This document shows, in pieces, positions 1-9,723 of a DNA stretch of 12,630 nt. The position numbers and the translations under genes are program-made. Origin of the DNA: Calditrichaceae bacterium (GTDB lineage Bacteria; Calditrichota; Calditrichia; Calditrichales; JBFXGD01); assembly GCA_050178385.1 (NCBI GenBank), contig JBFXGD010000088.1:1257-13886 (forward strand), given 5' to 3'. The stretch's first letter is position 1. Each line of letters begins with the position of its first letter. The notes under the pieces are model-generated. The model did no database searches and had not been told where the DNA came from. It saw only the letters and a list, made by a program, of their open reading frames with translations.

Positions 1-65
1 TTGCCACTGCATCCGATATACCGTTTTTTATCTTTTTCACTTAACAATATATAAACATCATACAT
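1..65 (-). CDS. GIY-YIG nuclease, second tandem copy (5' part only; runs off the window edge)
   Basis: ATG at 65..63. Bases 1..65 are identical to 307..371 and encode MYDVYILLSEKDKKRYIGCSG. Confidence 0.85.
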   Translation of the reverse strand, partial: MYDVYILLSEKDKKRYIGCSG

Positions 66-127
66 GGCGGATTCGCCCGCCTAAGGCGGGTTGCAGACCT
101 CTCCCTTAGCCACTTGGGTACGTCGCC
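66..127 (-). pseudogene. Degenerate tRNA-Cys(GCA), copy 2
   Basis: Identical to 372..433; begins 1 nt after the TAA stop of the 129..371 ORF. Confidence 0.85.
76..90. repeat. Perfect short palindrome CCCGCC-TAA-GGCGGG (copy 2)
   Basis: 6-bp all-GC inverted repeat with a 3-nt loop. Confidence 0.9.
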
Positions 128-128
128 A

Positions 129-371
129 TTAATCTGTTAATTTTTTATTCAGAAACTCTCTACCCTTGCCGCTTTTGAAAAATTTCTCTCTGTTCATTGC
201 AGCTTGTTTATCGGGAAAAGTTTCTTTATAAACCAATTTCAAAGGTCGTCTGTTTCTGGTGGACTTTACCAGACCGGCTTGATGCTCTGACAGTCTTCGT
301 TCCAGATTGCCACTGCATCCGATATACCGTTTTTTATCTTTTTCACTTAACAATATATAAACATCATACAT
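129..371 (-). CDS. Small stand-alone GIY-YIG nuclease (UPF0213/SLX1-like family), 80 aa
   Basis: Motifs VYIL-x8-YIG, RRLSEH, KSTRxRRPLKLVYxE and AxxREKFFK include the Tyr, Arg, His and Glu positions typical of the family. Confidence 0.92.
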   Translation of the reverse strand: MYDVYILLSEKDKKRYIGCSGNLERRLSEHQAGLVKSTRNRRPLKLVYKETFPDKQAAMNREKFFKSGKGREFLNKKLTD

Positions 372-433
372 GGCGGATTCGCCCGCCTAAGGCGGGTTGC
401 AGACCTCTCCCTTAGCCACTTGGGTACGTCGCC
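372..433 (-). pseudogene. Degenerate tRNA-Cys(GCA), copy 1
   Basis: Minus strand reads GGCGACG TA CCC AAGTGGCTAA GGG A GAGGT CT GCA A (5' acceptor strand, D-arm, 5' anticodon stem, GCA anticodon), then CCCGCCTTAGGCGGG, then CGAATCCGCC (T-loop and 3' T-stem). The 3' anticodon strand (ACCTC) and the 3' acceptor strand (CGTCGCC) are absent. Confidence 0.88.
382..396. repeat. Perfect short palindrome CCCGCC-TAA-GGCGGG (copy 1)
   Basis: 6-bp all-GC inverted repeat with a 3-nt loop, directly after A37 of the pseudo-tRNA. Confidence 0.9.
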
Positions 434-454
434 GGAACCCTATAAATAAAAAAG

Positions 455-527
455 AGCGAGAGACGGGATTCGAACCCGCGACCCCAACCTTGGCAAGGTT
501 GTGCTCTACCAGCTGAGCTACTCTCGC
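455..527 (-). tRNA. tRNA-Gly(GCC); CCA not encoded
   Basis: GCGAGAGTAGCTCAGCTGGTAGAGCACAACCTTGCCAAGGTTGGGGTCGCGGGTTCGAATCCCGTCTCTCGCT folds to a complete cloverleaf with anticodon GCC and a U discriminator. Confidence 0.97.
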
Positions 528-567: not shown

Positions 568-596
568 AATATAAAACTTTTTTAATTTCCTGTCAA
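568..596 (-). promoter_or_regulatory. Sigma70-type promoter for tRNA-Gly and the downstream array
   Basis: TTGACA (596..591), 17-nt spacer, TATATT (573..568), about 40 nt upstream of the tRNA, with AT-rich sequence further upstream. Confidence 0.75.
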
Positions 597-620: not shown

Positions 621-752
621 TTATTTCCACCTGTCTTTTATCTGCTGCTTCAGCCTGTTCTTTCTCCTGGCTGCTTTCTTACCAGATTCTCTGGCTTGCA
701 TCAGATAAAACACAAAAATAAATACTAACAGTATTACTATTATACTTTCCAT
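621..752 (-). CDS. Hypothetical 43-aa single-pass membrane peptide
   Basis: ATG at 752. MESIIVILLVFIFVFYLMQ is a hydrophobic helix followed by a Lys/Arg-rich tail. The longer track ORF (start 821) overlaps tmRNA, so the start was trimmed. Confidence 0.6.
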   Translation of the reverse strand: MESIIVILLVFIFVFYLMQARESGKKAARRKNRLKQQIKDRWK

Positions 753-760
753 AATATTAG

Positions 761-1115
761 TGGAGACGCCGGGAGTTGAACCCGGGTCCGAACATGGACC
801 AACATAAACATCTACAATCATAGCCGGTTATTAGTTCTCGTTTTGCAACAGGCTGACCGACAGGCCAGTTTCAAAACCAGTTCATAAAGTTTTTGAAACT
901 TAACGCATGAACATCATTAAGCTCAAATCCACCCAAATACGGCGCTTAACTTATCCCCGGTGAATCAGAGAAGAGCAAAGCGTGACAGCATTATTAAGCT
1001 GCCATTGCATAATTATAATCGGCACTTATCGTGCTTCTGACTAATTACGGGATAGTCAGGATCCCGGATTGCCGTTCATATCCTTCACATGCCCGTCGAA
1101 TCCAAAATCGTCCCC
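761..1115 (-). ncRNA. ssrA: tmRNA
   Basis: 5' GGGGACG..TGGATTCGACGG; 3' T-arm CCGGGTTCAACTCCCGG and CGTCTCC-A acceptor strand with G3:U70. Tag frame 1023..994 encodes ADYNYAMAA followed by TAA TAA. Length 355 nt. Confidence 0.96.
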
Positions 1116-1130
1116 GGACATATATTGACT

Positions 1131-1142
1131 CTTCAAAGAACT
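1131..1142 (-). promoter_or_regulatory. boxA-like antitermination motif upstream of tmRNA
   Basis: Minus strand AGTTCTTTGAAG resembles rRNA-leader boxA; lies 15 nt before the tmRNA 5' end. Confidence 0.4.
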
Positions 1143-1143
1143 A

Positions 1144-1213
1144 AAGGAAGGTGACCGTGATCAGGGGAAGGCCGGGGGAGGACCTTTTATGCTGAACCTT
1201 AGTCACCTTCCTT
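1144..1213. other. 70-nt imperfect stem-loop in the tmRNA leader (candidate structured RNA)
   Basis: Perfect 12-bp inverted repeat aaggaaggtgac (1144..1155) / gtcaccttcctt (1202..1213), with inner pairs tcag/ctga and aagg/cctt. Confidence 0.6.
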
Positions 1214-1246
1214 AAATTCTCTGAAAATCGTATTTCAATAGCTATA

Positions 1247-8790: not shown

Positions 8791-9723
8791 TTGGACAGAA
8801 GAGATCAATTCGATTATTTTGAGCTGCGCTGGTATGATCGGATTGACCGAAGATTTTCAGCTATCCTGTTCCTTTGTCTTATACTGACTTTTACATGGGT
8901 TTATATTGCCGCTAATTTTAACTATGATAAGTTTCAAACCGAGGTCCGCTCACAAATCATCACAAAATACAAACAGTTCGCTGCTGAACTAATCATTGAA
9001 CCGCCAGAAATATCTGATATGGCAGTGGATTCAGAATCACTGTCTTTTTCCGAAACGGAAAGTACGCGGGAAACTCCCGAACGTATTTCTCCCGGGGAAA
9101 GACGCGACCGCGAAAGGAAACGAATCGAAGATGAAATAGGGAAAAGTGAGTTTATGTCATCTATCGCCAGATCAGATCCATATGCCGATCTGCCTGATCC
9201 TGAGACAGATTTCCTGTTTGATGACGGGAGATCTTTTATTGAATTAGAACGCCCGTCTCCTGAAAGCCGGATAATACCATCCGGAAGATCCGGTCATGAT
9301 AATTTTGACGCCGGAACACTTGATGATCCTTTAAAGAGCCCTTTTAATTACAAACTGGAAAGAAGAGGCGCGGCTTATATCGAGTTCACGGATGAACTCC
9401 TGCGCCAGCCCGATGAACCCAACGGTTATCGTGATCCTGAAGAAATCAACCGGGTAATATATGACTACCGGCCGATGATTGAGTACTGTTTCAGGAAAGG
9501 CTCCAGACTCAACACCGGCATGAAGGGTTATATAAAAGTGCAATTCAGGATATCCTACAAGGGCCATGTTCTGCCGGAGAGCATAAAAATTATCGGCTCA
9601 ACCATTCATGACCGGAACGTCGAGCAATGTATTAAGAATTACATCAGCCGCTGGCGCAATTTTAAACGCCTGGATGAAACAATGGGGATCGCTAAAGTTG
9701 TCCAAAAATTTGTTTTTAATTAG
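8791..9723 (+). CDS. Single-pass membrane protein with an AgmX/PglI-like (TonB-C-like) C-terminal domain
   Basis: TTG start after GGAGA; one N-terminal TM helix; acidic, Pro/Ser-rich linker; C-terminal RDPEEINRVI..IEYCFRK..GYIKVQFRI..G.V..STI....VEQCI..F with the characteristic Cys pair. Confidence 0.75.
   Translation: MDRRDQFDYFELRWYDRIDRRFSAILFLCLILTFTWVYIAANFNYDKFQTEVRSQIITKYKQFAAELIIEPPEISDMAVDSESLSFSETESTRETPERISPGERRDRERKRIEDEIGKSEFMSSIARSDPYADLPDPETDFLFDDGRSFIELERPSPESRIIPSGRSGHDNFDAGTLDDPLKSPFNYKLERRGAAYIEFTDELLRQPDEPNGYRDPEEINRVIYDYRPMIEYCFRKGSRLNTGMKGYIKVQFRISYKGHVLPESIKIIGSTIHDRNVEQCIKNYISRWRNFKRLDETMGIAKVVQKFVFN

Follow-up and report, generated by a model that had tools for sequence, protein, structure and literature searches.

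A candidate minimal selfish nuclease cassette repeated at a tRNA-Cys gene of a Calditrichaceae bacterium

Free-standing selfish genes and hairpin-associated mini nucleases are both known kinds of GIY-YIG system, and here we describe a bacterial variant of these that is embedded in a tRNA operon. It lies at the start of a 12,630-nucleotide stretch of DNA (the window) from a Calditrichaceae genome (GCA_050178385.1, here G000; contig C88, positions 1257-13886), where a gene for a GIY-YIG nuclease, a GC-rich hairpin and pieces of tRNA-Cys make up a 306-bp cassette. For the published systems we draw on portions of the cited papers. SegB is a GIY-YIG homing endonuclease encoded in the tRNA cluster of phage T4; its 27-bp site includes a T-psi-C motif, and it cuts at tRNA 3' ends (PMC2330249). 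In phage T6, SegB drives the formation of tandem 718-bp tRNA-Tyr+segB repeats through a double-strand break and homologous recombination (Chihara et al. 2026, PMC13096335), and segB homologues co-localize with tRNAs in phage genomes (PMC13096335). Ssn proteins (family cd10448) are 94-aa single-domain GIY-YIG nucleases that act site-specifically on single-stranded DNA (ssDNA) and are flanked by short, GC-rich NTS/SRM hairpin repeats (Chenal et al. 2025, PMC11893778); the authors liken the hairpin-flanked ssn gene to an insertion sequence.

In the portions drawn on here, a 2006 survey of the GIY-YIG superfamily names tRNA only for a methyltransferase fusion (PMC1564403), and a study of rRNA insertions in the Candidate Phyla Radiation (CPR) reports sparse GIY-YIG open reading frames (ORFs) in these insertions and leaves tRNA unmentioned (PMC11270868). 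The full-text literature, with subscription journals outside it, yielded no account of bacterial mini GIY-YIG cassettes embedded at tRNAs and accompanied by hairpin-bearing pseudo-tRNAs, nor did we find UPF0213 genes connected there with tRNA genes, hairpins or tandem cassettes. We think it probable, though well short of certain, that the C88 locus is a minimal (~0.3-kb) selfish nuclease cassette that targets a tRNA gene, stands in at least two head-to-tail copies in a tRNA-Gly/Cys/Leu operon and is expressed from that operon. This reading builds on the anatomy of the locus, an empty site in a same-genus genome, the packing of ORFs against tRNA ends, the link with hairpins, the spread over many tRNA types and phyla, and the occurrence of tandem and decayed copies, all of which we observed directly.

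The tandem cassette at the tRNA-Cys gene

A preliminary description of the window had reported a unit at positions 128-433 made of a 62-nt tRNA-Cys-like piece, a 243-nt GIY-YIG ORF and one further base, 21 nt downstream of tRNA-Gly and free of integrase, transposase or intron core. The sequence and a match to PF01541 bear this anatomy out; the distance to tRNA-Gly is 20 nt by ARAGORN and 21 nt by Rfam, and Pfam and Rfam scans of the unit returned no integrase, transposase or intron core. The same description noted the identity of window 1-127 with window 307-433 at a spacing of 306, and read from it an array leaving the window and ongoing amplification. A repeat search of the window confirms the 100% identity, and its origin lies in the assembly. 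A 10-N scaffold gap (C88:1247-1256) immediately precedes window base 1, and the 127 nt to the left of this gap (C88:1120-1246) are the same as the 127 nt to its right. An overlap of exactly 127 nt flanks 8 of the 14 N-gaps in the 320-contig assembly, each closable by merging. Because this exact length recurs, as between unmerged neighbors in a k=127 graph, window 1-127 is an unmerged assembler overlap and not a third copy. The gap at C88 is alone in having 10 N; the remaining N-gaps of the assembly have 100 N each.

Left of the gap there follow, in order, a complete second unit (C88:941-1246), an intact tRNA-Cys(GCA) and tRNA-Leu(UAA). The merged locus reads tRNA-Gly, 20 nt, cassette a (pseudo-tRNA-Cys, ORF a, one base), cassette b (pseudo-tRNA-Cys, ORF b, one base), tRNA-Cys, 22 nt and tRNA-Leu, all on the minus strand and bounded by a promoter-like site before tRNA-Gly and a terminator-like site after tRNA-Leu (Table 1). 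The array does leave the window, then, in that a second full unit lies beyond the gap, but the segment from which this had been read is itself assembly overlap. The tRNA-Cys at the end of the array is intact and uninterrupted (63.9 bits in Rfam) and is the sole tRNA-Cys of G000, which overturns the earlier view that the nuclease gene occupies a broken tRNA-Cys locus. Cassettes a and b are identical at 302 of 306 positions; the four differences give copy b an E24K change, one synonymous change and a premature stop (Q56 to TGA, through two adjacent substitutions). Ongoing amplification had been deduced from an identity that belongs to the overlap, whereas the real copies differ at four sites and one of them is a pseudogene.

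At least two cassettes are present at C88, since the junction running from the ORF a stop through one base, pseudo-tRNA and hairpin to the next ATG is contiguous within the window. Tandem Repeats Finder returned 0 rows for the window because only 1.4 units fall inside it.

The pseudo-tRNA-Cys of each cassette begins with tRNA-Cys nt 1-37, continues with a 15-nt perfect hairpin (P1) that replaces nt 38-55, and ends with nt 56-65; it has no 3' acceptor strand, and the ATG of the ORF stands directly after nt 65. This conserved hairpin in place of part of the tRNA went unnoticed in the preliminary description. Within the 62 nt, neither ARAGORN nor Rfam at E<=1 calls a tRNA, and we rejected a functional odd tRNA on the lack of a covariance-model match at E<=1 and of the 3' acceptor strand. 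The duplication of nt 1-37 allows us to write the insertion as P1 + 10 nt + ORF + 1 nt + tRNA nt 1-37, placed after the anticodon loop. Comparison with the intact gene indicates that an insertion so written leaves a rebuilt tRNA-Cys downstream.

An empty Gly-Cys-Leu site, which the preliminary description had suggested looking for, is present in G001, a same-genus genome that is 97% complete. There the site reads tRNA-Gly, 20 nt, tRNA-Cys, 19 nt, tRNA-Leu; the promoter-like motif before it and the neighbor after it are those of G000, and the Gly/Cys spacer of G001 carries substitutions near its start relative to that of G000. The two genomes differ at this site by 612 bp, or 2 x 306, and a GIY-YIG protein query gave no match in G001.

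Within the operon, a TTGACA/TATATT site before tRNA-Gly is the only strong candidate start and the terminator-like site after tRNA-Leu is the only one on this strand, both judged by consensus match only. The GIY-YIG ORFs lack a promoter of their own, and would be transcribed from the tRNA operon promoter and released by tRNA processing. We propose this route of expression because the ATG of relatives stands 0-3 nt after a tRNA 3' end.

Outside the cassette, P1 occurs as a dispersed repeat, with 23 copies in G000, 13 in G001 and 0-32 in other relatives, compared with 0-2 for a control pattern. The cassette is thus not its only setting, and P1 may have other ways of moving. Among the 41 genomes that we scored for homologues, G000 included, P1 abundance had no clean relation to the GIY-YIG gene: G001 has 13 copies and no GIY-YIG match, and G016 has 3 copies and a strong match. 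About 20 P1 sites lie on 15 other contigs of G000 (e.g., C53:4246, C187:5427, C229:721). P1 forms the center of these repeats, flanked by a few modules that recur in varied combinations, and several of the repeats lie near contig ends.

Table 1. Features of the cassette locus and the adjoining tmRNA (window coordinates, or C88 positions where so marked)
Feature	Position	Strand	Basis or remark
Promoter-like site	568..596	-	TTGACA, 17 nt, TATATT; 11/12 consensus match
tRNA-Gly(GCC), intact	454..527	-	ARAGORN; Rfam tRNA 70.8 bits
Spacer between tRNA-Gly and first cassette, 20 nt (21 nt by Rfam match)	434..453	-	ARAGORN
Pseudo-tRNA-Cys, cassette a, 62 nt	372..433	-	Comparison with intact tRNA-Cys
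Hairpin P1, cassette a	382..396		CCCGCC-N3-GGCGGG; ends 10 nt upstream of ORF a ATG
ORF a, 80 codons + stop, intact	129..371	-	GIY-YIG nuclease gene, PF01541; stop 131..129
Single base between ORF a stop and next tRNA 5' end	128	-	Sequence
Pseudo-tRNA-Cys, cassette b	66..127	-	Same DNA as C88:1185-1246 across the gap
Hairpin P1, cassette b	76..90		Sequence
ORF b, first 65 nt	1..65	-	Whole ORF b at C88:942-1184 left of the gap, premature TGA
Single base after ORF b	Outside window		
tRNA-Cys, intact	C88:940..867		Outside window
tRNA-Leu	C88:844..758		Outside window
Terminator-like hairpin	C88:747..722		Outside window
tmRNA	760..1115	-	ARAGORN

The nuclease and its described counterparts

The ORF a product is a single-domain protein of 80 aa that matches PF01541 over residues 3-70 (57.2 bits, cut-off 22.6, E 2.1e-15), with no second domain. 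All 20 aligned relatives share residues Y5, Y16, R26, H30 and E62. The conserved catalytic residues of the GIY-YIG superfamily are two Tyr, an Arg, a His or Tyr and a Glu, and mutants of Ssn also guide the catalytic assignment (PMC11893778). An AlphaFold2 (AF2) model with a pLDDT of 93.3 has predicted strands at residues 2-9, 15-20 and 44-52 and predicted helices at 23-32, 55-66 and 68-79, in keeping with the beta-beta-alpha-beta-alpha fold of the superfamily. Among solved structures, phmmer searches against the PDB matched 1zg2 (BH0048, UPF0213; E 5.7e-6) and 1ywl (EF2693, UPF0213; E 4.5e-4). In Foldseek comparisons the TMq was 0.56 for 1zg2, 0.65-0.70 for Slx1 nuclease domains and 0.48 for I-TevI; ranks 1-13 were UPF0213, Slx1 and HIGLE proteins, and the top fold matches include Slx1 in Slx1-Slx4 complexes bound to branched DNA. 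Judged by its sequence and by the neighbors of its predicted fold, the protein falls in the Slx1/UPF0213 (YhbQ-like) branch of structure-specific GIY-YIG nucleases. A PHROGs search assigned it no family, and NCBIfam gave sub-threshold matches only, such as 24 bits to a group I intron endonuclease model whose cut-off is 56. A protein library clustered at 50% identity contains 706 representatives at E<=1e-10 and 6066 at E<=1e-3. Source annotations call the relatives "GIY-YIG nuclease family protein" or "putative endonuclease", and many predicted homologues carry N-terminal extensions that are likely tRNA read-through.

The SegB system of phage T6 is the nearest functional analogue of nuclease-driven tandem amplification. 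Like SegB, the cassette places a GIY-YIG gene among tRNA genes, involves many tRNA isotypes and is missing from close relatives that retain the tRNA cluster, as the empty homologous site of G001 illustrates. It differs in that SegB is phage-borne and its gene was cloned as a 687-bp fragment, far larger than one for 80 aa. The additional part of SegB is a DNA-binding region, and the one-domain cassette protein has no such extra region. Its predicted fold is also nearer to Slx1/UPF0213 than to a Tev/Seg-type catalytic domain, as the TMq of 0.48 given above suggests. In the portions of the SegB accounts drawn on here (PMC2330249, PMC13096335), a hairpin plug, a pseudo-tRNA and a cognate palindrome go unmentioned, and the tRNA association described concerns phage and archaeal-virus proteins only.

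Ssn is likewise a single-domain protein of similar size (~90 aa compared with 80 aa here), and Ssn residues Y6, Y17 and E64 resemble Y5, Y16 and E62 of the cassette protein. A C directly after the palindrome matters for Ssn binding (PMC11893778), and P1 in the cassette is also followed by a C. ORF a has Ssn-like hairpin flanks, with P1 lying 10 nt upstream (382-396) and 38 nt downstream (76-90); in the case of ORF b, P1 precedes the gene and the intact tRNA-Cys follows it. The two systems differ in that tRNA goes unmentioned throughout PMC11893778. The Ssn SRM search pattern is not enriched in G000, where it had 11 matches against 14 in a reversed control, and C88 and C99 were free of matches. 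Our comparison with Ssn uses the published description and this SRM pattern, and the nearest solved relatives of the cassette protein are named UPF0213.

Slx1 itself differs in having a further domain and needing Slx4, according to PDB entry titles. With tRNA islands and group I introns, the cassette shares the use of a tRNA gene as insertion site and the preservation of a functional tRNA through a duplicated segment or splicing; it differs in having no integrase or recombinase, in duplicating the 5' part and in matching no intron core at E<=1. Several established classes do not fit this locus. A group I intron is excluded by the lack of an Rfam intron family match at E<=1 and by the presence of an uninterrupted tRNA-Cys, and an integrase island by a unit whose only ORF is the GIY-YIG gene, which holds no tyrosine or serine recombinase and whose repeat is tRNA nt 1-37 rather than the 3' end. 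An IS200/IS605 insertion sequence, or a repetitive extragenic palindrome (REP) with its REP-associated tyrosine transposase (RAYT), was set aside on the lack of Y1_Tnp in the unit and of P1 within 600 nt of the Y1_Tnp genes of G000.

Distribution among relatives and neighboring features

A whole-genome scan of G000 gave three PF01541 matches above cut-off, two at C88 and one at C99, all of them tRNA-linked. The C99 paralogue (C99:11868-12101) is 40% identical to ORF a and lies ~220 nt after tRNA-Asp. Its surroundings (C99:11575-12583) hold tRNA-Asp(GTC) with a terminator-like hairpin, then a tRNA-Asp 3' piece, the GIY-YIG ORF and two more pieces. In these 3' pieces the T-arm is replaced by a TCCCGA..TCGGGA palindrome, unlike P1.

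Homologues occur in 37 of the 41 scored genomes, with up to 10 matches per genome; many of them lie at a contig end, on a very short contig or 290-480 nt from a second copy. A tRNA gene is present in 21 of 29 relative loci that were fetched, and in nine of the relatives' ORFs the start is 0-3 nt beyond the 3' end of a tRNA that shares their strand. At the Gly-Cys-Leu locus of other genera, an intact tRNA-Cys is followed by one or two ORFs, each followed in turn by a P1-bearing tRNA-Cys 3' piece, and P1-bearing pseudo-tRNAs without an ORF also occur at this locus. In many relatives the ORF stands 0-3 nt after an intact tRNA and the 3' part of the tRNA is duplicated. Duplication of the tRNA 5' part, to which the preliminary description had drawn attention, holds at C88 but is no rule of the family.

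We also searched a public collection of species-representative genomes with a 7-sequence alignment. Relatives are encoded in 564 of the 600 candidate stretches, Melioribacter and Caldithrix loci being represented, and the counts per locus that follow concern the best 80 loci. A tRNA of the same locus lies within 300 nt of the ORF in 74 of the 80, within 100 nt in 70 and within 10 nt in 32; the ORF and the tRNA are on the same strand in 73 of the 74 tRNA-linked loci, which comprise 21 anticodon types. Two or more ORF copies are found in 11 of the 80. Both predictions of the preliminary description, that homologues would associate with tRNA genes and would occur in tandem, are borne out by these counts and, for tandem copies, by the closely spaced pairs in relatives. 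Six loci have no tRNA, and in five of these the ORF is at a contig end.

All rows with at least 59% identity and a tRNA within 300 nt are at the tRNA-Cys cluster. Their record titles name Ignavibacteria, Melioribacter, Calditrichia, Bacteroidetes, Wirthbacteria and Desantisbacteria, amounting to at least five phylum-level names, and identities of 60-70% extend across loci titled with different phyla. Loci titled Ignavibacteria, Bacteroidetes, Wirthbacteria and Desantisbacteria again show the 5'-duplicating layout (pseudo-5' part, ORF, intact tRNA), in one case with a tandem pair.

Hairpins accompany the ORFs in these public loci. Counting hairpins with a CGCC/GGCG core (CGCC-N3-GGCG) and a stem of at least 6 bp, we found one within 160 nt of the ORF in 52 of the 80 loci, and their density was 2.77 per kb within 160 nt of the ORF and 0.152 per kb farther off, an 18-fold enrichment. 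Where both flanks match the neighboring tRNA, the segment replaced by the hairpin tends to span from one cloverleaf loop or junction to the next (9 to 18/19, about 21-26 to 32-37, 37 to 56, and 49 to 65), in a numbering that is approximate, accurate to 1-3 positions in the D region and fit to show a tendency only.

Several features lie next to the cassette locus or farther along the window. On the minus strand, window 621-753 encodes the C-terminal part, a small hydrophobic tail rich in Lys/Arg, of a 66-aa ORF (621..821) and is conserved upstream of tRNA-Gly in G001; the ORF is probably shorter in truth because its 5' part overlaps the transfer-messenger RNA (tmRNA) gene. The tmRNA (window 760-1115) is 97% identical in G001, where it lies on a different contig from Gly-Cys-Leu and its Gly-facing side is unrelated; therefore either the adjacency of tmRNA and tRNA-Gly or the arrangement of the contigs differs from that in G000. 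Just upstream of the tmRNA, window 1132-1225 contains an inverted repeat with 24-nt arms that are 88% complementary and 46 nt apart. On the plus strand, window 8791-9723 holds a 310-aa ORF between Gate-domain genes and coaE, with no Pfam match at E<=0.01.

Proposed mechanism, alternatives and significance

We infer cleavage, its target, homing and the origin of the array, and mobility from how the cassettes are distributed. The working parts would be the GC-rich hairpin, 10 nt of tRNA T-loop/T-stem, the 80-aa GIY-YIG gene and the spare copy of tRNA-Cys nt 1-37. The nuclease would break DNA in or beside a tRNA gene, and host repair would copy the cassette in, with the tRNA-derived segments serving as homology. 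The spare 5' part would rebuild a whole tRNA-Cys downstream, and the original 5' part would remain upstream as a dead pseudo-tRNA plugged by the hairpin. A second round could consist in re-insertion, or a break could induce unequal recombination between the 37-nt or the 306-nt repeats; a tandem array would result because the rebuilt tRNA is an intact target again, and the hairpin-substituted leftover would be a tRNA no longer and probably no target either. Amplification by nuclease cutting and recombination, which the preliminary description had put forward, has an experimental precedent in phage T6 SegB (PMC13096335), although for C88 both the cleavage and the array origin are extrapolated.

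As a lead, we consider it most likely that the nuclease recognizes not a long duplex site but structured or single-stranded DNA, in the form of its own hairpin or of tRNA-gene loops. We favor such recognition because the protein has no DNA-binding domain and falls in the Slx1/UPF0213 branch. A fuller model, which we offer tentatively and would not ourselves bet on, is that one hairpin and one 80-aa Slx1/UPF0213-like nuclease gene constitute an autonomous ~300-bp mobile element that reads the shape of DNA, both in its own hairpin and in the loops that a tRNA gene forms as folded ssDNA. Loops would be cut, the cassette copied in by host repair, the tRNA rebuilt from the partial copy and a tRNA arm of the leftover copy swapped for the hairpin, with expression through the tRNA operon and tRNA processing. 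Arrays would then grow at the same tRNA, and lineages would keep to one tRNA type across phyla, because the target is rebuilt each time.

Several observations weigh against reading the locus as a selfish cassette. The case for mobility is a distributional one, and copy b is a pseudogene with a premature TGA. P1 is dispersed in G001, which has no GIY-YIG match, as well as in G000. Promoter and terminator matches are at chance level in their overall counts (6 found, 4.6 expected). Two units are a lower bound; the assembly graph may permit further copies of unit a, and more than two copies or a strain mixture are possible. The public and the scored sets overlap, with 5 of the 80 public loci coinciding with loci from scored relatives, and the titles of some records may be wrong, as in the "uncultured Gammaproteobacteria" bins. 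A tree of 86 proteins speaks for the selfish cassette, with reservations. Compared with 300 shuffles, the tRNA-type label changes only 27 times (shuffle minimum 42, mean 44.9) and the phylum label 42 times (shuffle minimum 52, mean 57.5), but these counts overstate the signal because relatives share labels, and the tree is weakly resolved, with 47 of 82 inner branches open. The tree labels point to clustering, not to co-evolution.

Much of the same evidence bears on two other accounts of the locus. The nuclease might be a domesticated or housekeeping enzyme that uses tRNA operons for expression, its pseudo-tRNAs and tandems being by-products of slippage or unequal recombination, with no self-promoted spread. 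UPF0213 proteins are widespread single-copy host genes, and the PDB names of the nearest solved relatives place the cassette protein beside them; the catalytic residues are conserved, the ORF sits inside the tRNA transcription unit, 0-3 nt after tRNAs in relatives, and Ssn nucleases have been proposed to be domesticated (PMC11893778). We nevertheless regard this account as unlikely, given that the gene comes and goes inside one genus, reaches 10 matches per genome, adjoins 21 tRNA types, exists in pseudogenised copies, often stands at contig ends or on very short contigs, and keeps 60-70% identity across loci titled with different phyla. Alternatively, the hairpin could be the mobile agent, a REP-like sequence spread by another enzyme (e.g., a Y1 transposase) that strikes redundant tRNA copies, with the GIY-YIG gene as a locally duplicated passenger. 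The dispersal of P1 far above its control pattern speaks for it, as do the Y1_Tnp homologues found in 5 of 5 hairpin-rich genomes tested, a result that counts against the selfish cassette. The four Y1_Tnp matches of G000, though, lie on other contigs and lack a P1 within 600 nt, and of other GC-rich perfect hairpins there was a single one near them, beside C243. A passenger gene would also leave unexplained why ORFs abut tRNA ends to within a few bases, and the 18-fold enrichment of CGCC/GGCG hairpins near ORFs across loci of many phylum titles argues the same way; we consider the hairpin-driven account quite improbable.

An assembly artefact, in which a single cassette appears repeated through mis-scaffolding or strain mixing, has the fragmented state of the assembly in its favor, with its 320 contigs and 14 N-gaps and a window that starts at a gap with a 127-nt overlap. 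Public Logan contigs on window 60-371 leave this account standing: one contig each in X2 and X3, from two studies, closes a 306-nt loop, and at k=31 that loop is identical for one unit or two, since the 37-nt tRNA segment shared by a lone cassette exceeds k-1=30. Logan contigs from X1 and X18 cover the tRNA-like part only. The junction between the units is nevertheless contiguous in the window, and a lone cassette, which has no repeat longer than the 37 nt it shares with the tRNA, should therefore produce no assembly break at k=127. Each copy moreover carries distinct variants and is linked to a different right-hand neighbor, and tandem copies occur in independent assemblies of other genera. 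We accordingly give the artefact very little credence and return to the selfish cassette as the reading that we prefer.

The pairing of nuclease and hairpin makes the cassette a candidate source of site- or structure-specific DNA-cutting tools, and for annotation it is a reminder of how readily pseudo-tRNAs and tiny ORFs are mis-called. Should its own nuclease drive its spread, the cassette would rank with the smallest self-sufficient mobile elements known in bacteria. It would colonize essential single-copy tRNA genes without breaking them, and would explain the pseudo-tRNA debris and the assembly breaks beside tRNA genes in many uncultured lineages. It would also join hairpin-guided single-domain GIY-YIG nucleases (Ssn, 2025) with the tandem amplification of a homing endonuclease at tRNA genes (SegB, 2026), and would extend both themes from Neisseria and phages to the chromosomes of many bacterial phyla.

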